A stretch of DNA of 64,000 nt from Escherichia coli. Lineage in GTDB: Bacteria; Pseudomonadota; Gammaproteobacteria; Enterobacterales; Enterobacteriaceae. The stretch is from assembly GCF_036507355.1 (NCBI RefSeq), contig NZ_AP027877.1; one strand, written 5' to 3'. Below the pieces are notes generated by a model. The model was not told the origin of the DNA. It saw only the letters and a list, made by a program, of their open reading frames with translations, and made no database searches. Below are positions 5,298 to 64,000 of this stretch, piece after piece. Numbering within the stretch: the first letter of the stretch is position 1; every line of letters begins with the position of its first letter. The translations under genes were made by a program, and so were the position numbers.

Positions 5298-6344
<1,047 letters not shown>

Positions 6345-6455
6345 TCCTCTCTTTATCTGCTATACCTGGTAGTGTCCTTTCCTCAAGGTTAATGATAAAA
6401 AATGTGGCACACAGGCGGTGCCTTTTATTTTTACTGAAGTTCACAGGAGGTTTAT

Positions 6456-7223
6456 GTGTTTAATTCTGACAACCTGAGACTCGACGGAAAATGCGCCATC
6501 ATCACAGGTGCGGGTGCAGGTATTGGTAAAGAAATCGCCATTACATTCGCGACAGCTGGCGCATCTGTGGTGGTCAGTGATATTAACGCCGACGCAGCTA
6601 ACCATGTTGTAGACGAAATTCAACAACTGGGTGGTCAGGCATTTGCCTGCCGTTGTGATATTACTTCCGAACAGGAACTCTCTGCACTGGCAGACTTTGC
6701 TATCAGTAAGCTGGGTAAAGTTGATATTCTGGTTAACAACGCCGGTGGCGGTGGACCTAAACCGTTTGATATGCCAATGGCGGATTTTCGCCGTGCTTAT
6801 GAACTGAATGTGTTTTCTTTTTTCCATCTGTCACAACTTGTTGCGCCAGAAATGGAAAAAAATGGCGGTGGCGTTATTCTGACCATCACTTCTATGGCGG
6901 CAGAAAATAAAAATATAAACATGACTTCCTATGCATCATCTAAAGCTGCGGCCAGTCATCTGGTCAGAAATATGGCGTTTGACCTGGGTGAAAAAAATAT
7001 TCGGGTAAATGGCATTGCGCCGGGGGCAATATTAACCGATGCCCTGAAATCCGTTATTACACCAGAAATTGAACAAAAAATGTTACAGCACACGCCGATC
7101 AGACGTCTGGGCCAACCGCAAGATATTGCTAACGCAGCTCTGTTCCTTTGCTCGCCTGCAGCCAGCTGGGTAAGCGGACAAATTCTCACCGTCTCCGGTG
7201 GTGGGGTACAGGAGCTCAATTAA
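6456..7223 (+). CDS. hdhA: 7-alpha-hydroxysteroid dehydrogenase (short-chain dehydrogenase/reductase family)
   Basis: 255-aa ORF with SDR glycine motif TGAGAGIG and catalytic YxxxK (YASSK). Confidence 0.9.
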   Translation: MFNSDNLRLDGKCAIITGAGAGIGKEIAITFATAGASVVVSDINADAANHVVDEIQQLGGQAFACRCDITSEQELSALADFAISKLGKVDILVNNAGGGGPKPFDMPMADFRRAYELNVFSFFHLSQLVAPEMEKNGGGVILTITSMAAENKNINMTSYASSKAAASHLVRNMAFDLGEKNIRVNGIAPGAILTDALKSVITPEIEQKMLQHTPIRRLGQPQDIANAALFLCSPAASWVSGQILTVSGGGVQELN

Positions 7224-7233
7224 TACACTAACG

Positions 7234-7266
7234 AACCGGTAAACAGCCGTATGTGTTGTTTACCGG
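7234..7266 (+). terminator. hairpin downstream of hdhA (candidate intrinsic terminator)
   Basis: Inverted repeat ccggtaaaca ... tgtttaccgg immediately after the hdhA stop. Confidence 0.5.
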
Positions 7267-7451
7267 GATAGCGTGTGCAATTCATCAACGTCTCTGCTAA
7301 ACAACTGGCAGCCAAATCACGGCTATTGGTTAACCAATAGCTGGATGAAAAGCATACGAATAGAGTGTGCCTTCGCACTATTCAACAGCAATGATAGGCG
7401 CTCACCTGACAACGCGGTAAACTAGTTATTCACGCTAACTATAATGGTTTA

Positions 7452-8042
7452 ATGATGGATAACATGCAGACTGAAGCACAACCGACACGGACCCGGATCC
7501 TCAATGCTGCCAGAGAGATTTTTTCAGAAAATGGATTTCACAGTGCCTCGATGAAAGCCATCTGTAAATCCTGCGCCATTAGTCCCGGGACGCTCTATCA
7601 CCATTTCATCTCCAAAGAAGCCTTGATTCAGGCGATTATCTTACAGGACCAGGAGAGGGCGCTGGCCCGTTTCCGGGAACCGATTGAAGGGATTCATTTT
7701 GTTGACTATATGGTCGAGTCTATTGTCTCTCTCACCCATGAAGCCTTTGGGCAACGGGCGCTGGTGGTCGAAATTATGGCGGAAGGGATGCGTAACCCAC
7801 AGGTCGCCGCCATGCTTAAAAATAAGCATATGACGATCACTGAATTTGTTGCTCAGCGGATGCGTGATGCCCAGCAAAAAGGCGAGATAAGCCCAGACAT
7901 CAACACGGCAATGACTTCACGTTTACTGCTGGATCTGACCTACGGTGTACTGGCCGATATCGAAGCGGAAGACCTGGCGCGTGAAGCGTCGTTTGCTCAG
8001 GGATTACGCGCGATGATTGGCGGTATCTTAACCGCATCCTGA
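7452..8042 (+). CDS. uidR: TetR-family repressor of the uid operon
   Basis: 196-aa ORF with N-terminal TetR HTH; located directly upstream of uidA. Confidence 0.9.
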   Translation: MMDNMQTEAQPTRTRILNAAREIFSENGFHSASMKAICKSCAISPGTLYHHFISKEALIQAIILQDQERALARFREPIEGIHFVDYMVESIVSLTHEAFGQRALVVEIMAEGMRNPQVAAMLKNKHMTITEFVAQRMRDAQQKGEISPDINTAMTSRLLLDLTYGVLADIEAEDLAREASFAQGLRAMIGGILTAS

Positions 8043-8430
8043 TCTTCTCATTTCGCGGGCTGGTGATAACTGTGCCCGCGTTTCATACTTTAATTTCCCT
8101 GTACAAAATACAATCTCCCCGGGATCGGAGAATTCCCCCCCCAAAATATTCACCGTAGCCATATGTCATGAGAGTTTATCGTTCTCAAGATGCTCGAACG
8201 AACGTTCGATTGCTTATTTTATGGCTTCTGTCAACGCTGTTTTAAAGATTAATGCGATCTATATCACGCTGTGGGTATTGCAGTTTTTGGTTTTTTGATC
8301 GCGGCGTCAGTTCTTTTTATTTCCATTTCTCTTCCATGGGTTTCTCACAGATAACTGTGTGCAACACAGAATTGGTTAACTAATCAGATTAAAGGTTGAC
8401 CAGTATTTTTATCTTAATGAGGAGTCCCTT

Positions 8431-11612
<3,182 letters not shown>

Positions 11613-51424: not shown

Positions 51425-51470
51425 TACTGAGGTGTACTGGCAATAGCGGACACTACCATTTGTTCTTTTT

Positions 51471-52289
51471 TTAAGCAGCCATCTGATGATATTTTTCCCT
51501 GAAGGCTGCCGGGGAGATATTCCCCAGACGAGAGTGACGACGCTGACGATTGTAGAAAATCTCAATGTATTCCCGTATTACTGAGATGGCTTCATCCCGG
51601 TTATTAAAACGATAGTGGCTCAGGCTCTCATTTTTCAGCGTTCCCCAGAAGCTTTCCATCGGAGCGTTGTCGTAACAGTTACCTTTACGCGACATTGATG
51701 TTTTCAGACCAAACTGCTCCTGTATGACCCGGTAATCGTATGCGCAGTACTGTGAACCTCGATCAGAGTGGTGGATTAGCCCGGCAGGTGGGCGCTGTCT
51801 CCTGAGCGCCATAAACAGGGCTTTACCTGTCAGCTCTTTTGTCATGCGCTCTCCCATGGCGTAGCCGACAATTTCGCACGTATAAACATCTTTGATGCCA
51901 GCGAGGTACAACCATCCCTCCTGTGTGGCAACATACGTCAGGTCCGCCACCCAGACCTGATTTGGTGCTGTAGGAGCGAACGTCTGGTTCAGCAGATTTG
52001 GCGCAACTGGCAGATTGTGGTTCGAGTTCGTAGTCGCTCTGAACTTGCGTTTCTGCTTACAGCGTAGCCTTAGCTCCTTACGAAGACGTGCCAGTCGGTC
52101 ACGACCAACGATGATGCCATTCTCTGCCAGCTCCGTCTGGAGCCGCCGGGTTCCATATGTTTCGCGAGTGCGGATATGTGCCACCTTAATCTCCAGTTTT
52201 AGCCGCTCATCACTTTGTTTTCTGTCTGAGGGTTCATGCTGTACCCAGTTGTAATAACCGCTCCTGGATACACCAAATACCTGACACAT
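51471..52289 (-). CDS. IS600 transposase OrfB (DDE integrase domain)
   Basis: 272-aa ORF recognised as IS600 OrfB; DDE-type catalytic core. Confidence 0.88.
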   Translation of the reverse strand: MCQVFGVSRSGYYNWVQHEPSDRKQSDERLKLEIKVAHIRTRETYGTRRLQTELAENGIIVGRDRLARLRKELRLRCKQKRKFRATTNSNHNLPVAPNLLNQTFAPTAPNQVWVADLTYVATQEGWLYLAGIKDVYTCEIVGYAMGERMTKELTGKALFMALRRQRPPAGLIHHSDRGSQYCAYDYRVIQEQFGLKTSMSRKGNCYDNAPMESFWGTLKNESLSHYRFNNRDEAISVIREYIEIFYNRQRRHSRLGNISPAAFREKYHQMAA

Positions 52290-52324
52290 CGCTTCAATGG
52301 GAAATTGTTGTCGCCATTGTTCGA

Positions 52325-52627
52325 TTAACGCGTATTTTTCAGCGACTCCTGTGCAAAATACGCTGTTGCTTTTTTTAATATATCTCGCTCAAGGCGAGCT
52401 TCATTTAACGCCTTACGCAGTTGCAGAATTTCAGATTCCAGTTCAGCCACCGTGCGGGAACCAGGAGTACCGAGCCCTTTTCTGGCGGCGGTAACCCATT
52501 GTCCTAAAGTGCCTTCAGGAAGAGATAATCGGGAAGCGCCTTCACTGATCGAAAGTTGATTTTCAAGAACCGTTCTGACAGCTTCGGCTTTGAACTCTTT
52601 AGAGTAACGTTGGGTTTTTCTGCTCAT
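52325..52627 (-). CDS. IS600 transposase OrfA (HTH)
   Basis: 100-aa ORF MSRKTQRYSKEFKAEAVRTV... recognised as IS600 OrfA; ends at the slippery heptamer. Confidence 0.88.
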   Translation of the reverse strand: MSRKTQRYSKEFKAEAVRTVLENQLSISEGASRLSLPEGTLGQWVTAARKGLGTPGSRTVAELESEILQLRKALNEARLERDILKKATAYFAQESLKNTR

Positions 52628-54386
52628 TATTAGCTCCTTCTGATGCCATTCTATTTCAGGAAGGAGTGTCCGTTAAACTCAGGCTACCTCATACCAATAA
52701 CGGCGAGTAAGTAGTACGCATCTTACCTCTTTTTTAGAGATAACCATTATGTCAATAGAAAAACACGAAAGAAGCACTAAGGATTTGGTGAAAGCAGCAG
52801 TATCGGGATGGCTGGGCACTGCGCTTGAATTTATGGATTTCAAGAGTCATGCGTGTTAACTATTTGATAAATATTAAATTAATTTTTCATTGCTTCGTTA
52901 TGGGGCATGGTTGGGGCAAACTCGCTTAACTGTGTATTTAACAAAGCTACCTGTGCATTATTGTTTTCAGACATCCATTTTCCGTATAGACCCTCCGCAT
53001 CTTGAGAGTGTTGGTGATAACGCCTGGATGGGAAAGAAATATGGACGGCTGAATAAAGATGCCTGGCGTGATGATTCGCGACAGAGATTTAAAGAAGCCT
53101 TTCGGGTGTTGAGGCCGCACGGCGTTCTGATTTTTTAATGGAATGAAACGCAAATACCGGTAAGCCAGATTCTGGCACTGACAGACAGAAAACCTGTTAT
53201 CTGTCAACGAACAGGGAAAAAACGATAAAACCCACTGGATTATTTTTATGAAAGAGGCATCCAGTGAGTAGATTCGTAAGGCTACAGATACGTATATCTG
53301 AATAATTAAATTCAGTTCTGTAAATAAAATTTAATCCTTAACCGGATGGATTTCTGCACCCTCAGAACATCAGGAGGCCGCCCGAAAGGGCGGTAGTGAA
53401 ATGCGAAAGTTCAAAATTATTATTGAAACGGGAATAGCTGGTGGAGATTTTGAGGATGTATTCGAAGTGGACGATGACGCAACACCTGAGGAAATTCATG
53501 ACGGAGCATAAGAAATTTTCTTTAACTACTGCAATTACTCATACCACGAAATAAAAGACGATGAGGAAGAACAAAGTGGCTGATTTTTGTTCAGCTAAAT
53601 ATAACATCAGTTTTGAAGAGCGGGATGAACTATTAATGGACTATGGTGAGTTACGCGGTGGAAGTGCTGCTGATGTCGAATCCTAGCGTGATGACTATGA
53701 AGCGGGAAAAACTCCGGTCGAAGCATATTGTGATGAGTGGGGCGATGAATGAGCGAGATTAATTATCAGGAAGGGCATGAAACGGCGGGGCAAGCAAAAC
53801 CAGTGGCATGGCGATATCGCTACGTGAAAAAAGGCGTTACGGACTTTCAGGGGAAGTAGTGGTCTGGTGACTGGAAATATGTACCGAAAAAAGAGGATTG
53901 TAACGACAGGCCGAACTATCAAATTCAGGCCTTATTCACTGCCTCACCAGTCCCAGTTACATCAGAAGAACTGGTTAAAGCTGTGCACTTTTATGAACAA
54001 CTAAAACGCGAAAATCCACCAACATCCGGCAACTAGATTAATGGATTAACTATGTCGGTTAAACGACCAGCCAACTGAAAAAGCGGAAACCTGATTACAG
54101 GTTGCCAGATAAGGCAATGAGCTACCTGGCGCGGAACGGACTGATAAGTATGGGGAATGTTTTACGATGAACCTTTAGACTAAAGAGTTTGTAACGCTAT
54201 GTAAGTGATTTTTTCTGGTTTAGATATTTATATGTCCGGCCAAATTGAGGTGTGTTTAAATGTAATTGCACATTGATTGTAGGAGGAATAATGAAAAACG
54301 CATTGCAGTTTTTGTTTGTTGCGTTCTGGTTGTTCGCATCATGTATGCCCATCATCTTCACAGCAAGGTGAATCGCCACGGATAAT

Positions 54387-55199
54387 CTAGACACTTCCGA
54401 GCCGTTGATAATACTGGTTTTCATATTCTGTCGGTGACATCTGATCGCTGGAACCATGCCGACGCTTACTGTTATAAAACATTTCGATGTAATCAAAAAT
54501 ATCGCTGCGGGCTTCTTCCCGCGTTCCGTAGATCTTTTTCTTTATCCGTTCGCGTTTCAACAACTGGAAAAAGCTTTCTGCAACCGCATTATCATGGCAG
54601 TTACCGCGACGGCTCATGCTGCCATCCAGGCCGTGTGATTTCAGGAACGACTGCCACTCATGGCTTGTGTACTGACTGCCCTGATCCGAATGAACCAGCA
54701 CCTGTTTTTGGGGATTACGGCGCCATACAGCCATCAGCAGTGCGTTCAGGACAATGTCCTTTGTCATCCGGGATTGCATGGACCAGCCGATAATTTTGCG
54801 TGAGAACAGATCAACAACCACGGCAAGATACAGCCAGCCTTCGTGGGTCCTGATGTAGGTTATGTCCGTTACCCAACGCTTATCCGGAGCATCCGGATTG
54901 AACTGTCGCTGGAGCCTGTTGGGCGACACGATACTGGCCTCGCCTTTACGTGCCCGCGGGCTCCGGTATCCGACCTGAGCCTTTATCCCGACACGTTTCA
55001 TCAGTCGCCAGACTCTGTTCACTCCGCACTGTTGCCCGCTGTCCCGCAGATCCAGATGGATTTTGCGATAACCATAGACGCATCCCGATTCCAGCCAGAA
55101 CTGTTTAATCTGCCCTGTCAGCCTCAGGTCTGCCTGATGGCGTTGTGAATGCGGCTGCTGAAGCCAGGCGTAAAAACCACTGGGATGAACATCCAGCAC
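54387..55199 (-). CDS. IS3-family transposase OrfB
   Basis: 270-aa ORF with DDE integrase core (…HSDQGSQYTS…, …GNCHDNAVAESFF…). Confidence 0.85.
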   Translation of the reverse strand: MLDVHPSGFYAWLQQPHSQRHQADLRLTGQIKQFWLESGCVYGYRKIHLDLRDSGQQCGVNRVWRLMKRVGIKAQVGYRSPRARKGEASIVSPNRLQRQFNPDAPDKRWVTDITYIRTHEGWLYLAVVVDLFSRKIIGWSMQSRMTKDIVLNALLMAVWRRNPQKQVLVHSDQGSQYTSHEWQSFLKSHGLDGSMSRRGNCHDNAVAESFFQLLKRERIKKKIYGTREEARSDIFDYIEMFYNSKRRHGSSDQMSPTEYENQYYQRLGSV

Positions 55200-55255
55200 C
55201 CGACAGAGCAGGCGAACAGGCCAGCAACAGGTGTTGTCACGGATAAAGGCGTACC

Positions 55256-55540
55256 TCAGTCGGACAGCTTTGCGAAGTACGCCGCGGCTTTTTTTAATAT
55301 GTCCCGTTCGTCGGTAACCCGCTTCAGCTCTTTCTGGAGACGGCGGATCTCGGCCTGAGCATCTGACTGTTCTTTATTAGCGGAAGAATCCGGACCGTAC
55401 TTCTTTATCCAGGCGTAAAGGCTGTGGGTGGTGATATCGAGACGTGTTGCAACGCTGGCAACAGAATAACCGCGATCAACAACCTGTTTGACTGCTTCAA
55501 TTTTAAACTCTTCGGGATAACGCTTACCGCTCATGGGCAC
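55256..55540 (-). CDS. IS3-family transposase OrfA
   Basis: 94-aa HTH ORF ending at the slippery heptamer. Confidence 0.85.
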   Translation of the reverse strand: MPMSGKRYPEEFKIEAVKQVVDRGYSVASVATRLDITTHSLYAWIKKYGPDSSANKEQSDAQAEIRRLQKELKRVTDERDILKKAAAYFAKLSD

Positions 55541-55760
55541 CTCTCTTTAAGCCATCTTAAATGACTCTGAGGTGTCTGTTAAACCCGTGGCGATTCATAA
55601 TTGATCATGGGTTGTCAGTTAAACTCGTGGCGATTTAAATAGACTAATTGGGAGTGCGTCCATTACTTATATCTTGTAATGTTAACTATCAGAAATTCTT
55701 GTAATGTTAACTATCAGAAATGATACAAAGATAATATGTCTTTAAAGAAAAGGCTGATGG

Positions 55761-55785
55761 CGAAAAGTGGCCCGATGAGGGCCAC
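55761..55785 (-). terminator. intrinsic terminator of flxA
   Basis: On the minus strand: hairpin GTGGCCC-TCATC-GGGCCAC followed by TTTTC. Confidence 0.7.
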
Positions 55786-55799
55786 AATACGGCTGTCAC

Positions 55800-56132
55800 T
55801 TAGACGTAAATATCAATGGTGCCAGCGGTATTTGTATCGTCTTTTTTCTCTTCTTTTTTATCAGGCTGAACTGTCGCGTCTTCATTCTTTTTCTCTGCCT
55901 GCTGCCTTAACAACTGCTCCAGTTGAGCCCAGAGGCTTTCAATTTGCTTCTGTACCAATGCAGCCATTTCTTTTTTCTGCTGTGTCGTCATCCCCTCTTC
56001 CGATGAGATTTTCCCAAGCTTTTCAGTCAGCACCTGAATTTGTCTTGTGATTTTGGCTATTTCTGATGTTCCTTCCGGGGCGGAGTTGTTTGAAATAACG
56101 GTTGAGGTATTTCCCTGAATTGTGACAGACAT
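55800..56132 (-). CDS. flxA: FliA-regulated prophage protein FlxA
   Basis: 110-aa ORF recognised as FlxA; preceded by a sigma28-type promoter and a GGAG ribosome-binding site. Confidence 0.8.
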   Translation of the reverse strand: MSVTIQGNTSTVISNNSAPEGTSEIAKITRQIQVLTEKLGKISSEEGMTTQQKKEMAALVQKQIESLWAQLEQLLRQQAEKKNEDATVQPDKKEEKKDDTNTAGTIDIYV

Positions 56133-56155
56133 AGATTTCTCCTTTTAAAAAAGCA

Positions 56156-56182
56156 CTATCGGCATGCACAAAAAAATCTTTA
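56156..56182 (-). promoter_or_regulatory. sigma28 (FliA) promoter of flxA
   Basis: Minus strand reads TAAAGATT-N11-GCCGATAG, matching consensus TAAAGTTT-N11-GCCGATAA, about 25 nt upstream of the flxA start. Confidence 0.75.
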
Positions 56183-56334
56183 ATCGTATTTCTTGTGTCA
56201 TTAATTGTTTGATGTTCAGATTGTTTTCCTCGCGGGCTGGCGCGCCTCAGAAAGTAAAGCTTGTTGACAGGGGTAAACGTTCGGCAATAATTTTCTGCCG
56301 CATGCGGGTGTTGCATAAAACGTGTTACGTTCCT

Positions 56335-56640
56335 TTATCGACAGGTCAGGTCACCGCTCACCCGCCGACGAGAAAGCAACACTGACATGCTAAAGCAAAA
56401 AATAGATGAATAAGTTGAGTTGTGCATATGTAGCCTGACCGTCACAAAGTATATGGTGTCTGTACCAGTAAGATGATGGCCGGACTCTTTAAAAACGAGC
56501 TGACCTGCACAATACAGGATGGACTTAGCAATGGCTGCTCCTGGCACAAAGCGGACAGTGATCACCGTTCTTACGACTACTTTCTGACTTCCTTCGTGAC
56601 TTGCCCTAAGCATGTTGTAGTGCGATACTTGTAATGACAT
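56335..56640 (-). CDS. ydfV: prophage protein of unknown function (YdfV-like)
   Basis: 101-aa ORF between flxA and relB; identity rests on size and position only. Confidence 0.4.
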   Translation of the reverse strand: MSLQVSHYNMLRASHEGSQKVVVRTVITVRFVPGAAIAKSILYCAGQLVFKESGHHLTGTDTIYFVTVRLHMHNSTYSSIFCFSMSVLLSRRRVSGDLTCR

Positions 56641-56653
56641 TTGTAATTACAAG
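56628..56653. promoter_or_regulatory. relBE operator (inverted TTGTAAT repeats)
   Basis: cttgtaatgacatttgtaattacaag about 12 bp upstream of the relB ATG. Confidence 0.7.
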
Positions 56654-56664
56654 AGGTGTAAGAC

Positions 56665-56904
56665 ATGGGTAGCATTAACCTGCGTATTGACGATGAACTT
56701 AAAGCGCGTTCTTACGCCGCGCTTGAAAAAATGGGTGTAACTCCTTCTGAAGCGCTTCGTCTCATGCTCGAGTATATCGCTGACAATGAACGCTTGCCGT
56801 TCAAACAGACACTCCTGAGTGATGAAGATGCTGAACTTGTGGAGATAGTGAAAGAACGGCTTCGTAATCCTAAGCCAGTACGTGTGACGCTGGATGAACT
56901 CTGA
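56665..56904 (+). CDS. relB: RelB antitoxin
   Basis: 79-aa ORF recognised as RelB; stop overlaps the relE start. Confidence 0.92.
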   Translation: MGSINLRIDDELKARSYAALEKMGVTPSEALRLMLEYIADNERLPFKQTLLSDEDAELVEIVKERLRNPKPVRVTLDEL

Positions 56905-57191
56905 TGGCGTATTTTCTGGATTTTGACGAGCGGGCACTAAAGGAATGGCGAAAGCTGGGCTCGACGGTACGTGAACAGTTGAAAAAGAAGCTGGTTGAAG
57001 TACTTGAGTCACCCCGGATTGAAGCAAACAAGCTCCGTGGTATGCCTGATTGTTACAAGATTAAGCTCCGGTCTTCAGGCTATCGCCTTGTATACCAGGT
57101 TATAGACGAGAAAGTTGTCGTTTTCGTGATTTCTGTTGGGAAAAGAGAACGCTCGGAAGTATATAGCGAGGCGGTCAAACGCATTCTCTGA
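56904..57191 (+). CDS. relE: RelE mRNA interferase toxin
   Basis: 95-aa ORF recognised as RelE. Confidence 0.92.
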   Translation: MAYFLDFDERALKEWRKLGSTVREQLKKKLVEVLESPRIEANKLRGMPDCYKIKLRSSGYRLVYQVIDEKVVVFVISVGKRERSEVYSEAVKRIL

Positions 57192-57250
57192 ACCAAAGCT
57201 TCGCACCGAAGGTGACACTTCTGCTTTGCGTTGACAGGAGAAGCAGGCTA

Positions 57251-57406
57251 TGAAGCAGCAAAAGGCGATGTTAATCGCCCTGATCGTCATCTGTTTAACC
57301 GTCATAGTGACGGCACTGGTAACGAGGAAAGACCTCTGCGAGGTACGAATCCGAACCGGCCAGACGGAGGTCGCTGTCTTCACAGCTTACGAACCTGAGG
57401 AGTAAG
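57251..57406 (+). CDS. hokD: Hok-family type I toxin (HokD/RelF)
   Basis: 51-aa ORF MKQQKAMLIALIVICLTVIVTALVTRKDLCEVRIRTGQTEVAVFTAYEPEE translated by hand from the sequence (below the ORF-track size cutoff). Confidence 0.85.
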
Positions 57407-57471
57407 AGACCCGGCGGGGGAGAAATCCCTCGCCACCTCTGATGTGGCAGGCATCCTCAACGCACCCGCAC

Positions 57472-57500
57472 TTAACCCGCTTCGGCGGGTTTTTGTTTTT
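57472..57500 (+). terminator. intrinsic terminator after hokD
   Basis: aacccgc-ttcg-gcgggtt followed by TTTTGTTTTT. Confidence 0.7.
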
Positions 57501-57621
57501 ATTTTCAACGCGTTTGAAGTTCTGGACGGTGCCGGAATAGAATCAAAAATACTTAAGTAGCGCGCAGGGATAAGAGGGATGGTCCCTTAAAGGGGAGAGC
57601 TAATTATCCGGAAGGATTCTG

Positions 57622-57873
57622 ATGATGAACATCGAAGAACTGCGTAAAATTTTTTGTGAAGATGGCCTCTATGCTGTGTGCGTTGAAAATGGAAATCTTG
57701 TTAGTCATTACCGCATTATGTGTTTGCGAAAGAATGGGGCTGCGTTAATTAATTTTGTGGATGCTCGGGTCACGGACGGATTTATCTTGCGCGAAGGTGA
57801 GTTTGTCACTTCATTACAGGCATTGAAAGAGATCGGAATAAAAGCTGGCTTTTCTGCTTTTTCAGGAGAATAA
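57622..57873 (+). CDS. rem: prophage protein Rem
   Basis: 83-aa ORF at the position of rem in Qin-type prophages. Confidence 0.6.
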   Translation: MMNIEELRKIFCEDGLYAVCVENGNLVSHYRIMCLRKNGAALINFVDARVTDGFILREGEFVTSLQALKEIGIKAGFSAFSGE

Positions 57874-58180
57874 ACTCATCTACAATCTTGCGCGGGGCTG
57901 AACTCCCGCTGAGTAACACCGTGCCACCGGAGAAAACCGATGGCACGCAACGCAAAATATTACAATTCTGATAATTCGCCCGTTCTTGCCTGCACGCACG
58001 GGCGGTATTCTCACGCATTCAAGTCTGAATGGTTCCAGCACCCTCCATGCACTGCAGAACAGGCCGAATGGCTGATTCATTCTTACCGCAGGCGCGGGTT
58101 CGAGGTTAAGAAAGCTCTCAGTCTCGACTATCGGCACTGGATAATCTCTGTCAGGCTGCCTTATTCCGAACGCCCACCAC

Positions 58181-59269
58181 GTGCGTCCCGCACTTTCCAG
58201 CAACGGATCTGGAGGTAACGTGCGGGTATTACTTAGACCTGTTCTGGTGCCTGAGCTTGGGCTGGTGGTCCTTAAGCCGGGCCGTGAATCCATACAGATA
58301 TTTCATAATCCTCGAGTGCTGGTGGAACCGGAACCAAAAAGCATGCGTAATCTGCCATCCGGAGTCGTTCCTGCCGTTCGCCAGCCGCTGGCGGAAGACA
58401 AAACATTGCTGCCGTTTTTTAGTAACGAACGGGTGATTCGTGCTGCTGGCGGCGTTGGCGCATTGTCCGACTGGCTATTACGTCATGTTACATCCTGCCA
58501 GTGGCCTAATGGCGATTACCATCACACTGAAACAGTCATTCACCGTTATGGTACCGGCGCAATGGTGTTGTGCTGGCACTGCGACAACCAACTGCGTGAC
58601 CAGACATCGGAATCACTGGAGCTGCTTGCTCAACAAAATCTGACAGCATGGGTGATTGACGTCATCCGTCACGCAATAAGCGGTACGCAGGAGCGGGAAT
58701 TATCTTTGGCTGAATTATCCTGGTGGGCGGTCTGCAATCAGGTGGTGGATGCACTACCTGAGGCTGTATCGCGTCGTTCGCTGGGATTACCAGCGGAAAA
58801 AATCTGCTCGGTGTACCGCGAAAGCGACATCGTACCGGGAGAGCAGACCGCCACCAGCATATTGAAACAACGCACAAAAAATCTTGCACCGTTGCCTTAC
58901 GCCCACCAGCAACAAAAATCACCACAGGAAAAGACGGTGGTAAGCATCACCGTTGATCCAGAGTCTCCGGAATCTTTCATGAAGCTGCCTAAACGTCGCC
59001 GCTGGGTTAAGGAGAAATACACACGTTGGGTTAAGACACAGCCGTGTGCTTGCTGCGGTATGCCAGCCGACGATCCGCATCATCTGATTGGTCACGGGCA
59101 GGGCGGAATGGGAACAAAAGCACATGATCTCTTTGTGTTGCCTTTGTGCAGAAAGCATCACAACGAGCTGCATACGGATACAGTGGCATTTGAAGATAAG
59201 TATGGCTCCCAACTGGAGCTGATATTTCGTTTTATCGATCGCGCGCTGGCAATTGGCGTACTGGCGTAA
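58181..59269 (+). CDS. ydfU: DUF968-family prophage protein YdfU
   Basis: 362-aa ORF upstream of and overlapping the Q antiterminator gene; true start may be internal. Confidence 0.65.
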   Translation: MRPALSSNGSGGNVRVLLRPVLVPELGLVVLKPGRESIQIFHNPRVLVEPEPKSMRNLPSGVVPAVRQPLAEDKTLLPFFSNERVIRAAGGVGALSDWLLRHVTSCQWPNGDYHHTETVIHRYGTGAMVLCWHCDNQLRDQTSESLELLAQQNLTAWVIDVIRHAISGTQERELSLAELSWWAVCNQVVDALPEAVSRRSLGLPAEKICSVYRESDIVPGEQTATSILKQRTKNLAPLPYAHQQQKSPQEKTVVSITVDPESPESFMKLPKRRRWVKEKYTRWVKTQPCACCGMPADDPHHLIGHGQGGMGTKAHDLFVLPLCRKHHNELHTDTVAFEDKYGSQLELIFRFIDRALAIGVLA

Positions 59270-60669: not shown

Positions 60670-60969
60670 AAAAATTCCTTAATACTGATAACTTGGCGCA
60701 CTATACACACGTTCCTGAAGAAAGCTATAGTTTTTTGATGGGGTTGAAGATGGCTGGATGTCTAAAATAAACATTGCTTCATATGTTCAACTATGCGTTA
60801 ATGATTGCGTCGGTTTGAAGAACAGACGATATACGAAGTAGTTTACTAAAGCAGTTCTCATTTCAGGTGTTATTCACTTATTCCTTCTTTGAGTCTCTCC
60901 AATTAAGTACGAAGTCGTTTCTGTTATGCAAACCATTTATGCCGAAAGGCTCAAGTTAAGGAATGTAGA

Positions 60970-61185
60970 ATGTCAAATAAAATGACTGGTTTAGTAAAAT
61001 GGTTTAACGCTGATAAAGGTTTCGGCTTTATTTCTCCTGTTGATGGTAGTAAAGATGTGTTTGTGCATTTTTCTGCGATTCAGAATGATAATTATCGAAC
61101 CTTATTTGAAGGTCAAAAGGTTACCTTCTCTATAGAGAGTGGTGCTAAAGGTCCTGCAGCAGCAAATGTCATCATTACTGATTAA
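60970..61185 (+). CDS. cspB: cold shock protein CspB
   Basis: 71-aa ORF with RNP1-like KGFGFI motif; long upstream leader. Confidence 0.92.
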
Positions 61186-61466
61186 AATTCATCGCTCGTC
61201 TGTATACGATAACGAAGAAGGCTGATGCCTGAGTAGAGATACGGACAGAGTAGTGAATATTGGATCTCTTTAATAAAAAGTAAGGAGGTCCAATACATGA
61301 AACAATGGCTAGCATATTTGGCAAAATCTTAATCAGGAAAAGTATGCTAACCATTGTGGTGAAGTGCAGGTTTGCTGCATGAATAGTTTTACAGCAGAAG
61401 CTAACTGCTGGCATGGCAAAACAAAGTGCGTAAGTGGATGACTCCCACAAAAAGCACCACAATCTC

Positions 61467-63494: not shown

Positions 63495-63856
63495 GGTAAT
63501 ATTAAATCGGAACATTTACATCGCGGAATGTAAAATTTAAATAAAAAGGACTCTTCCATGAGCCAAAATTCCTGAAATCTTAAGGGTAAGATAAAAGGTC
63601 TTAATCAGAATGACACGTTTTATTAATAAATAAAGCTATTCTTTCATTGCTGTGTTTTTCTTTACAAAAGTAATCCTTGCTATGGGTGGTTAATCATGCG
63701 TTAATGGTGTTCTGGTTTGTTACAAATTTATCTGAAGCAGTCATTGTTATAATTTTATTATTTGTACCTCTTGAGATTTCCTTGTTGGTTTTTCTCTCTG
63801 ATATTTTTTTTCGGACCATTCTGCCCAAGGGCTAATTTCTTCAAAAGGTAATAATT

Positions 63857-64000
63857 ATGTCTAACAAAATGACTGGTTTAGTGAAATGGTTTAACCCTGA
63901 AAAAGGTTTTGGTTTCATCACGCCGAAAGATGGCAGCAAAGATGTGTTTGTCCATTTCTCAGCAATTCAGAGCAACGATTTCAAAACATTAACTGAGAAT
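63857..64000 (+). CDS. cspI: cold shock protein CspI (5' part; truncated by the window end)
   Basis: [48 protein letters not shown]...; the window ends inside the gene. Confidence 0.85.

Follow-up and report, generated by a model that had tools for sequence, protein, structure and literature searches.

The relB-relE-hokD locus of the cryptic prophage Qin raises the question of whether the type II toxin-antitoxin pair RelB/RelE is followed there by a complete second module of type I, or only by its toxin gene. We have addressed this question in a stretch of 64,000 nt of the Escherichia coli contig NZ_AP027877.1 (hereafter the window, to which all positions refer unless another locus is named), whose plus strand carries relB, relE, hokD and rem between 56300 and 57900, as seen from the listing of open reading frames (ORFs) and from direct reading of the sequence. 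The initial annotation described the region 56628-57500 as a complete and fully functional relB-relE-hokD module with operator repeats and a terminator. All of these parts are present there, and hokD, as had been supposed, escaped the ORF list because with 51 aa it falls under the 60-aa filter. The description holds for relBE and for all the coding sequences, which are intact, but not for the type I part, which lacks Sok, mok and the tac/ucb leader. Taken together, our data very probably describe the known Qin relBEF operon, whose hokD was left without sok, mok, tac and ucb after the insertion of a 3.3-kb transposon, whose HokD output would be controlled via RelB, mRNA folding and possibly TadA, and whose 13-bp deletion appears private and is predicted to be neutral.

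A type I module of the hok/sok kind is made up of a Sok antisense gene, mok, a tac/ucb leader, the Hok ORF and a 3′ region with fbi and a terminal hairpin. The Hok ORF, the 3′ fbi and the terminal hairpin are conserved in the window with respect to intact loci. The Rfam sok model, RF01794, found nothing at E ≤ 10 in 55000-59000 and nothing at its gathering score in the whole 64 kb; in related loci it scored 115 bits in E. coli B T7Express (L003), 104 in E. coli O157:H7 (L004), 104 in E. coli NCTC9066 (L026), 102.5 in the Enterobacter plasmid pRHBSTW-00975_2 (L024), 133.5 in an IMG/VR locus (L061) and 94.7 in Citrobacter portucalensis (L023). In T7Express and O157:H7 the match spans the hok leader, from the 5′ end of tac to the hok AUG, directly upstream of the hokD homologue. 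The T7Express leader comprises a promoter of its own, tac (GGGTGCTTGAGG, absent from the window), an in-frame upstream extension of 19 codons, which gives the '70-codon ancestral ORF' (PMC6379469), and a sok promoter on the minus strand. The latter, as called from the sequence, would have its −35 (TTGCCT, 2497-2502) abutting the hok GGAG and its −10 (TAACCT) at 2474-2479, in agreement with the primers used for sokW cloning, probe and promoter mutants (PMC8621323).

Homology between the window and the intact hok loci begins at 57236, 14 nt before the hokD ATG, with identity from AGGAGAAGCAGGCT-ATG onwards, and in many E. coli genomes the match to the window starts no earlier than 57236, these genomes carrying hokD and rem without relBE. 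The positions of the sok −35 and −10 are taken in the window by the right inverted repeat (IRR) of a transposon. The fbi element has been kept without its tac partner: tac and fbi lock with p ~1.0 in folded T7Express RNA, and the partners of fbi in the window reach p 0.47 at most in the full relBEF mRNA. Since neither the gene for the Sok antisense RNA nor mok nor a tac/ucb leader is present, hokD is an orphan Hok cistron behind the relB promoter, PrelB, and not a complete type I module. This conclusion agrees with the description of hokD as disrupted by a rearrangement and of the K-12 hok loci as non-functional in an earlier article (PMC7232551, citing Pedersen and Gerdes 1999).

The initial annotation had pointed to the complementary strand around 57200-57260 as the place of a Sok-like antisense promoter. 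A scan for consensus promoters on that strand returned none reaching 9/12, the best manual candidate scoring 6/12. As the same scan also misses the sok promoter in both controls, T7Express and O157:H7, the homology and the Rfam model are decisive, and both speak against an antitoxin retained by hokD: the sok model has no match, and the transposon end sits where intact loci have the promoter. A dual module with its own Sok could draw on the fact that any antisense transcript from the relE-hokD spacer would be complementary by definition, and on a weak terminator-like hairpin of the minus strand (57211-57199), although such hairpins occur at chance level (1.2 expected). We consider it exceedingly improbable, and the reading as largely refuted.

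The origin of the orphan cistron can be traced in NCTC9066, where a 3.3-kb block lies between two copies of GGAGAAGCAGGCTAT, with an intact hokD-type leader (104 bits) on its left and the hokD ORF on its right. The complete element occupies 5605-8903 of that locus (5590-8918 with the flanking duplications), and the window aligns from 55587 to 57533 with its positions 7241-9200; the left inverted repeat (IRL), the transposase and the split-off hok/sok leader are missing from the window, in which homology starts at L026 position 7241. The same block, 97.8% identical, is present in plasmid pRHBSTW-00975_2 (335-3665 with the duplications). The plasmid shows, in this order, a hok leader (102.5 bits), GGAGAAGAAGGCCAT, TGTTAACACC..., an 'IS1202-like element ISEsa1 family transposase', flxA, ydfV, relB, relE, ...GCGTTGACA, a second GGAGAAGAAGGCCAT and a hok ORF. 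IRL and IRR, a pair seen in both loci, agree at 19 of 26 positions, which is the best match in 3.4 kb and a value that none of 300 shuffles reached, and the boundary of IRR is the same in every context examined. The 15-bp sequence GGAGAAGCAGGCTAT flanks the element on both sides in NCTC9066 and in 27 IMG/VR loci, occurs as a single copy in uninterrupted loci such as that of T7Express, and is represented in the window by its right copy only. Judged by these sequence comparisons, relBE, flxA and ydfV belong to the cargo of a transposon of the IS1202 family that inserted in the hok translation-initiation region. The leader was lost independently in two lineages, because the endpoints differ (L026 position 7241 in the window and 6808 in K-12), and both have kept relBE-hokD despite that loss. 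A right end of the 1,609-bp ISEsa1 recorded in ISfinder was also sought inside the element, but around the place where it should lie no inverted repeat matched convincingly.

The arrangement recurs in other hosts and replicons. A gapped-pattern scan found relBE with the same 3′ flank also in Klebsiella, Citrobacter, Enterobacter and Kluyvera, and on a plasmid contig of K. michiganensis another hok gene follows the relBE flank, with the joint at the identical nucleotide. The matching plasmid records amount to 878 (Klebsiella 348, Enterobacter 249, Citrobacter 72, and others), 706 of them conjugative, and 680 records carry relBE and its flank through the Shine-Dalgarno (SD) sequence and ATG of hok. 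A scan of IMG/VR for the left end recovered 41 loci, 39 with the hokD-type 15-mer on the left and 27 with the same 15-bp repeat at both ends. At L061 (13716-13899) the left junction holds a third type of hok leader (flank GGAGGGGCTATGATG, 133.5 bits) and the right junction is of the hokD type. In C. portucalensis the relBE flank abuts an inverted hok leader, the sok model scoring 94.7 bits on the opposite strand; at 8764-8929 of this locus the transposon right end meets an inverted copy of the 15-mer and the opposite-strand sok leader. The junctions of these two loci suggest insertion in the opposite orientation or recombination between copies. We tentatively propose, as an idea still short of probable, that the transposon may prefer the SD and start-codon region of hok genes, having hit two or more diverged types of hok, probably three, in prophages and about 680 plasmids, with a 15-bp duplication each time, and moving hok from Sok/mok control to the RelB-repressed promoter. 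The transposon origin is apparently undescribed, in that no description was found in the searchable literature, a search to which Pedersen and Gerdes (1999) and Ramisetty and Santhosh (2016) did not belong.

The right end of the element has features of its own. Positions 57231-57236 form a perfect outward-facing −35 hexamer, TTGACA, which may act as a promoter at other sites; hokD offers no usable −10 at 16-18 nt from it, and therefore no hybrid promoter is predicted. In the K. pneumoniae plasmid pRHBSTW-00433_2 (L025), a ~1.1-kb insertion, probably an insertion sequence (IS), lies within IRR between relE and the plasmid hok (3140-4230) and separates the latter from PrelB.

In K-12, PrelB is repressed by RelB-RelE at the operator relO. 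The genes relB, relE and hokD lie there on a single PrelB transcript that is de-repressed by stress, by an excess of toxin or by other toxins, and after induction the mRNA is cleaved and its 3′ relE/hokD part accumulates as the most abundant species (PMC3598666; PMC5120126). Toxicity upon expression has been reported for the HokD coding sequence (10.1101/2025.08.07.668861). In the sequence of events shown by the comparison of loci, the transposon (IRL, transposase, flxA, ydfV, relB, relE and IRR) inserted exactly at the hok initiation region and duplicated 15 bp, the duplication regenerating the SD and AT(G) for the hok ORF and the sok/mok leader being left on the far side, from where later deletions removed leader and sok in the window strain. 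HokD production would then be governed only by RelB repression, mRNA folding and possibly TadA editing, with no antisense RNA; as the relBEF mRNA contains no Sok target, HokD output would depend on RelB repression and mRNA structure. The SD of hokD, a GGAG of its own 9 nt ahead of the ATG, would, according to the folding of both the window and the K-12 alleles, be paired with UUCUCU in the last relE codons (p 0.55-0.74), and such pairing would couple hokD initiation to relE translation. According to a preprint, hokC, hokD and hokE are edited like hokB at a position numbered cysteine 46 (10.1101/2025.08.07.668861), which we infer to be Tyr47 of the window HokD, where the TadA motif lies. A pairing of GCGUUGA, within IRR, with fbi appeared in the minimum-free-energy structure of the 3′ fragment and was gone in the full-length mRNA, and it was not adopted.

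It is quite conceivable, if somewhat less than probable, that only relBE is functional and that hokD has become a silent relic whose co-transcribed message never yields toxic amounts of protein, with its SD sequestered, without mok coupling and in need of Tyr47-to-Cys editing. A relic of this kind would fit the folding model, in which the SD of the full-length mRNA is unpaired with a mean probability of only 0.22, the description of the K-12 hok loci cited above (PMC7232551) and the existence of natural nonsense alleles of hokD: in one contig with the window's YdfU allele (L013), codon 2 is changed from AAG to TAG. However, the hokD ORF is identical to that of the window in 31 of 33 other copies, conjugative plasmids show the relBE flank fused to another hok gene, and 680 plasmids have kept the relBE-to-hok junction; the toxicity of the HokD coding sequence (10.1101/2025.08.07.668861) and the abundance of the hokD part of the mRNA after induction (PMC3598666) likewise argue against a silent gene. 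All three proteins are identical to those of the window in 27 of 33 other full copies, and RelB is so in 33/33 copies examined; one copy, in another contig with the window's YdfU allele (L012), carries a RelE stop at codon 65.

Several points weigh against the account preferred here, that of a transposon insertion which placed hokD under RelB and mRNA folding. A single insertion outside hok, in the IMG/VR locus L027 (2912051188_000002; element from 1345, 3,301 bp, with the same ends), lies near two tRNA genes and has only a 6-bp repeat, CGCCTT, which is inconsistent with the 15 bp at hok sites, and ISEsa1 (1,609 bp) is listed without detectable target duplication (PMC10132070). The transposition chemistry is therefore not settled. 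If the preference for hok initiation regions is true, the 'no target duplication' of ISEsa1 would be explained, and the mobile unit may exceed the recorded ends. In addition, folding yields predictions only, the article already cited (PMC7232551) calls the K-12 hok loci non-functional, and the translation of HokD from the chromosomal operon is putative and unproven.

An alignment to K-12 had been proposed as a check, with inactivating differences in RelE or Hok as the finding that would count against an intact module. The coding sequences show no differences from K-12, and hence no inactivating change in either toxin; the sole difference, unnoticed in the initial annotation, is a 13-bp deletion in the spacer between relE and hokD. 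From 56560 to 57560 the window is identical to K-12 MG1655 (NC_000913.3) but for this single gap, in a three-way alignment with ATCC BAA-196, with zero differences in RelB, RelE, HokD, relO and the terminator. The deleted bases are ATGACATCTCTGT of the K-12 spacer, whose 71 nt have been reported (PMC5120126). Their loss creates a HindIII site, AAGCTT, at 57196-57201, and no microhomology flanks the junction. The deletion allele was found in 0 of ~1,900 other copies. Among 1,172 complete E. coli genomes with a relE-hokD junction the best alignment reached 92.1%, which corresponds to the 13-nt gap, and the exact deletion junction had no match in GTDB species representatives or JGI metagenomes; a gapped-pattern control returned six species-representative genomes with K-12-type junctions, the 13 nt being present in all. 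These nucleotides are also kept in all ten contigs with the window's YdfU allele, in all 680 plasmid copies and in all 28 IMG/VR copies.

Such uniqueness could have a technical cause, namely an assembly or sequencing error or an edit of the sequence. The absence of microhomology, the new HindIII site and the occurrence of the lineage otherwise in one draft contig would be in line with this. Yet the remaining window is a coherent natural genome (98.4-98.9% identity to K-12 in the core, natural IS insertions), and a clean loss of 13 bp in non-repetitive sequence is atypical of assembly error, which makes an artefact unlikely. A regulatory variant altering HokD output is, in our judgement, very unlikely. 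The deletion removes the AUG of a 15-codon ORF present in K-12, an anti-SD-like UCUCUG able to pair with the hokD SD in a short K-12 fragment, and a MazF ACA site; it also shortens the distance from relE to the SD, and all other copies, which come from at least six genera, carry these 13 nt without variation. However, ensemble folding predicts practically unchanged SD accessibility in three contexts, with unpaired probabilities, window versus K-12, of 0.22 and 0.22 in the full-length mRNA, 0.37 and 0.42 with a ribosome held at the relE stop, and 0.43 and 0.41 in the 3′ fragment. The K-12 annotation holds no small protein at the deleted ORF, and the invariance may reflect recent spread, since the copies are 97-99% identical overall. 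We therefore favour a private allele that, on these folding models, is probably neutral.

The features of the locus are collected in Table 1. RelB matches PF04221 in Pfam (112 bits) and the NCBIfam equivalog NF008412 (133 bits), RelE matches PF05016 ParE_toxin (51 bits) and the RelE/StbE subfamily of NCBIfam, and HokD matches PF01848 HOK_GEF (83 bits). Over their full length, RelE matches chains of PDB 4V7K, 4V7J, 4FXE and 2KC8, and RelB matches 4FXE chain A and also 2K29; both are identical to the proteins in the solved RelB2E2 and RelE-ribosome structures. The pair shows what defines a type II module: an antitoxin-first gene order with overlap (the relB stop and the relE start share 1 nt in TGATG, 56902-56906), a ribbon-helix-helix RelB with a toxin of the RelE/ParE fold, and an autoregulatory operator over the promoter. 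Given their 100% identity to the studied K-12 proteins, RelE would cleave ribosome-bound mRNA and be neutralised by the labile RelB. PrelB, assigned following published relBEF work (PMC3598666), falls below the threshold of the promoter scan because its consensus score is only 8/12, and it overlaps relO. Within this region, 12-nt direct repeats lie at 56624-56647 and 12-nt inverted repeats at 56628-56639/56642-56653, and TTGTAATTACAA is a perfect palindrome at 56641-56652. The terminator hairpin, with 7 bp of which 5 are GC, is identical in the K-12, E. coli B and O157 loci. The hokD 3′ untranslated region (57414-57495) gives a sub-threshold Rfam match to IsrK, a small RNA of Salmonella prophages (25 bits against a gathering score of 50), with an equal score in T7Express and O157:H7, probably owing only to a common architecture of hairpin plus terminator; this match and those to rsmX and P9, all far under their gathering scores, were set aside as a terminator-like resemblance.

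Table 1. Positions of the features of the relB-relE-hokD locus and its transposon remnant in the window
Feature	Position	Strand	Basis
Right-hand ~1.65-kb remnant of the 3.3-kb IS1202-family (ISEsa1-like) transposon, with flxA, ydfV, relB and relE	55587-57236		Alignment to NCTC9066 (L026)
flxA, divergent, upstream of relB	55800-56132	−	
ydfV, divergent, upstream of relB	56335-56640	−	
PrelB: −35 TTGCCC (56601-56606), 17-nt spacer, −10 GATACT (56624-56629)	56601-56629	+	Sequence; same in K-12
relO operator: TTGTAAT repeats at a distance of 12 nt, the inverted repeat CTTGTAATGACA/TGTAATTACAAG and the palindrome TTGTAATTACAA	56628-56653		Repeats; same in K-12
relB, antitoxin/autorepressor, 79 aa	56665-56904	+	ORF, K-12 alignment, Pfam, PDB, NCBIfam
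relE, ribosome-dependent mRNA interferase, 95 aa	56904-57191	+	ORF, K-12 alignment, Pfam, PDB, NCBIfam
relE-hokD spacer, 58 nt (71 in K-12), deletion junction 57199/57200	57192-57249	+	K-12 alignment
Transposon IRR, GGTGACACTTCTGCTTTGCGTTGACA	57211-57236		Matches reverse complement of IRL, 19/26
Right copy of the 15-bp target duplication, GGAGAAGCAGGCTAT, hokD SD through 'AT' of the start codon	57237-57251	+	
hokD (relF), Hok-family membrane toxin ORF, 51 aa	57250-57405	+	ORF, K-12 alignment, Pfam
TACG at Tyr47, TadA A-to-I (Tyr to Cys) editing motif reported for hok mRNAs	57388-57391	+	Sequence
fbi element, CCTCAACGCACCC, kept without tac partner	57455-57467	+	Alignment to intact loci, folding
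Intrinsic terminator: stem 57474-57491, then T-run; 3′ end of relBEF/hok mRNA	57474-57505	+	Hairpin scan
rem	57622-57873	+	ORF listing

By its sequence, the locus is the tricistronic relBEF (relB-relE-hokD) operon of Qin, already known, and the initial annotation was right in calling the arrangement an established one: relBE, operator and terminator have the same sequence as in the K-12 locus, which has been characterised by experiment. The window strain is not K-12, its flanking core genome being 98.4-98.9% identical to MG1655, and in the Qin segment 55593-64000 it differs from K-12 only by the 13-bp deletion, a 25-bp insertion and four SNPs (single-nucleotide polymorphisms). The 25-bp insertion (55697-55721) probably represents the size polymorphism of the transposon, 3,274 versus 3,301 bp, seen in IMG/VR copies. 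The prophage had been called otherwise decaying, and it is indeed more decayed than in K-12. The left arm of Qin, from intQ to ydfW and including dicB, dicF, dicA, dicC and ydfX, is absent from the window, where its place is taken by IS600 (51428-52690), by other remnants of prophage over ~1.3 kb and, with ORFs 54387-55540, by an element of the IS3 family.

IS600, with ORFs 52325-52627 and 51471-52289 on the minus strand, is inserted immediately behind the rspB stop, where 3-4 bp of the K-12 sequence are duplicated; the RspB allele of the window occurs in a single public draft contig (GCA_905398585.1), which ends at IS600. The stretch 52988-55593 holds remnants of a methyltransferase and of a DUF7167-like gene, as in NCTC9066, followed by the IS3-family element (ORFs 55256-55540 and 54387-55199), which truncates the relBE transposon at L026 position 7241. 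Matches to the cspA-thermoregulator 5′ untranslated region were found at 60809-61201 (159 bits) and at 63711-64000 (91 bits; cut by the window end), both upstream of Qin cold-shock genes (cspB and cspI region).

The relBE-hokD locus itself is textbook matter, and the main value of our analysis lies in the correction of the type I reading. The annotation of hokD as a toxin-antitoxin system of type I is misleading here, since there is no antitoxin RNA, and whatever HokD may do must depend on transcription under RelB control. The comparison of loci explains by a precise mechanism how the long-cited 'major rearrangement' of hokD came about, and the recurrence of the junctions suggests that the transposon repeatedly rewires Hok toxins from antisense-RNA to protein-antitoxin control, in prophages and on conjugative plasmids. 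Such rewiring bears on the spread and combination of toxin-antitoxin modules and is directly testable. Beyond the known locus, our findings add the private deletion and, mainly, the apparently undescribed transposon origin with its recurrence at hok initiation regions.

Among known systems, the closest is the relBEF operon of K-12, which shares with the window the gene set and order, the promoter/operator, the terminator, the flanking ydfV, flxA, rem and ydfU, and three proteins with 100% identity. The window departs from it in the spacer deletion, in the 25-bp insertion downstream of flxA, and in the upstream endpoint on the NCTC9066 element mentioned above, where the IS3-family element replaces ydfW/ydfX/dicC. 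The hokW-sokW locus of the Sakai prophage Sp5 and, in prophages of E. coli B and O157, the hokD-type loci that no element interrupts are 87-98% identical to the window from 57236 on (Hok ORF, SD, fbi and terminator) and occupy the same lambdoid map position, upstream of rem/DUF968/Q; all these loci keep a promoter of their own, a 170-nt leader with tac, the 19-codon extension (70 codons in total) and sok, whereas in the window these are replaced by relBE (PMC8621323). With hok/sok of plasmid R1 the locus has in common a Hok-family toxin (PF01848) and the 3′ architecture of fbi plus terminator, but it has no Sok, mok or tac-fbi lock, and therefore the antisense-controlled killing of the R1 type cannot operate. 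The relBE-hok fusions found in Klebsiella, Enterobacter and Citrobacter on conjugative plasmids of the IncF type share relBE and IRR with the window at 97-98% identity, and the junction before GGAG is the same; the downstream hok differs in those examined, being of the plasmid type (52 aa, MKLPRNTLL...), with a duplicated 15-mer, GGAGAAGAAGGCCAT. Finally, the transposon resembles the IS1202 family, in its ISEsa1 subgroup that includes transporter IS with passengers, in the annotated transposase, the imperfect terminal repeats of ~26 bp and the flanking direct repeats (PMC10132070), and it differs from ISEsa1 in being a 3.3-kb unit with four passenger genes, against 1,609 bp, and in its 15-bp duplications at hok initiation regions.

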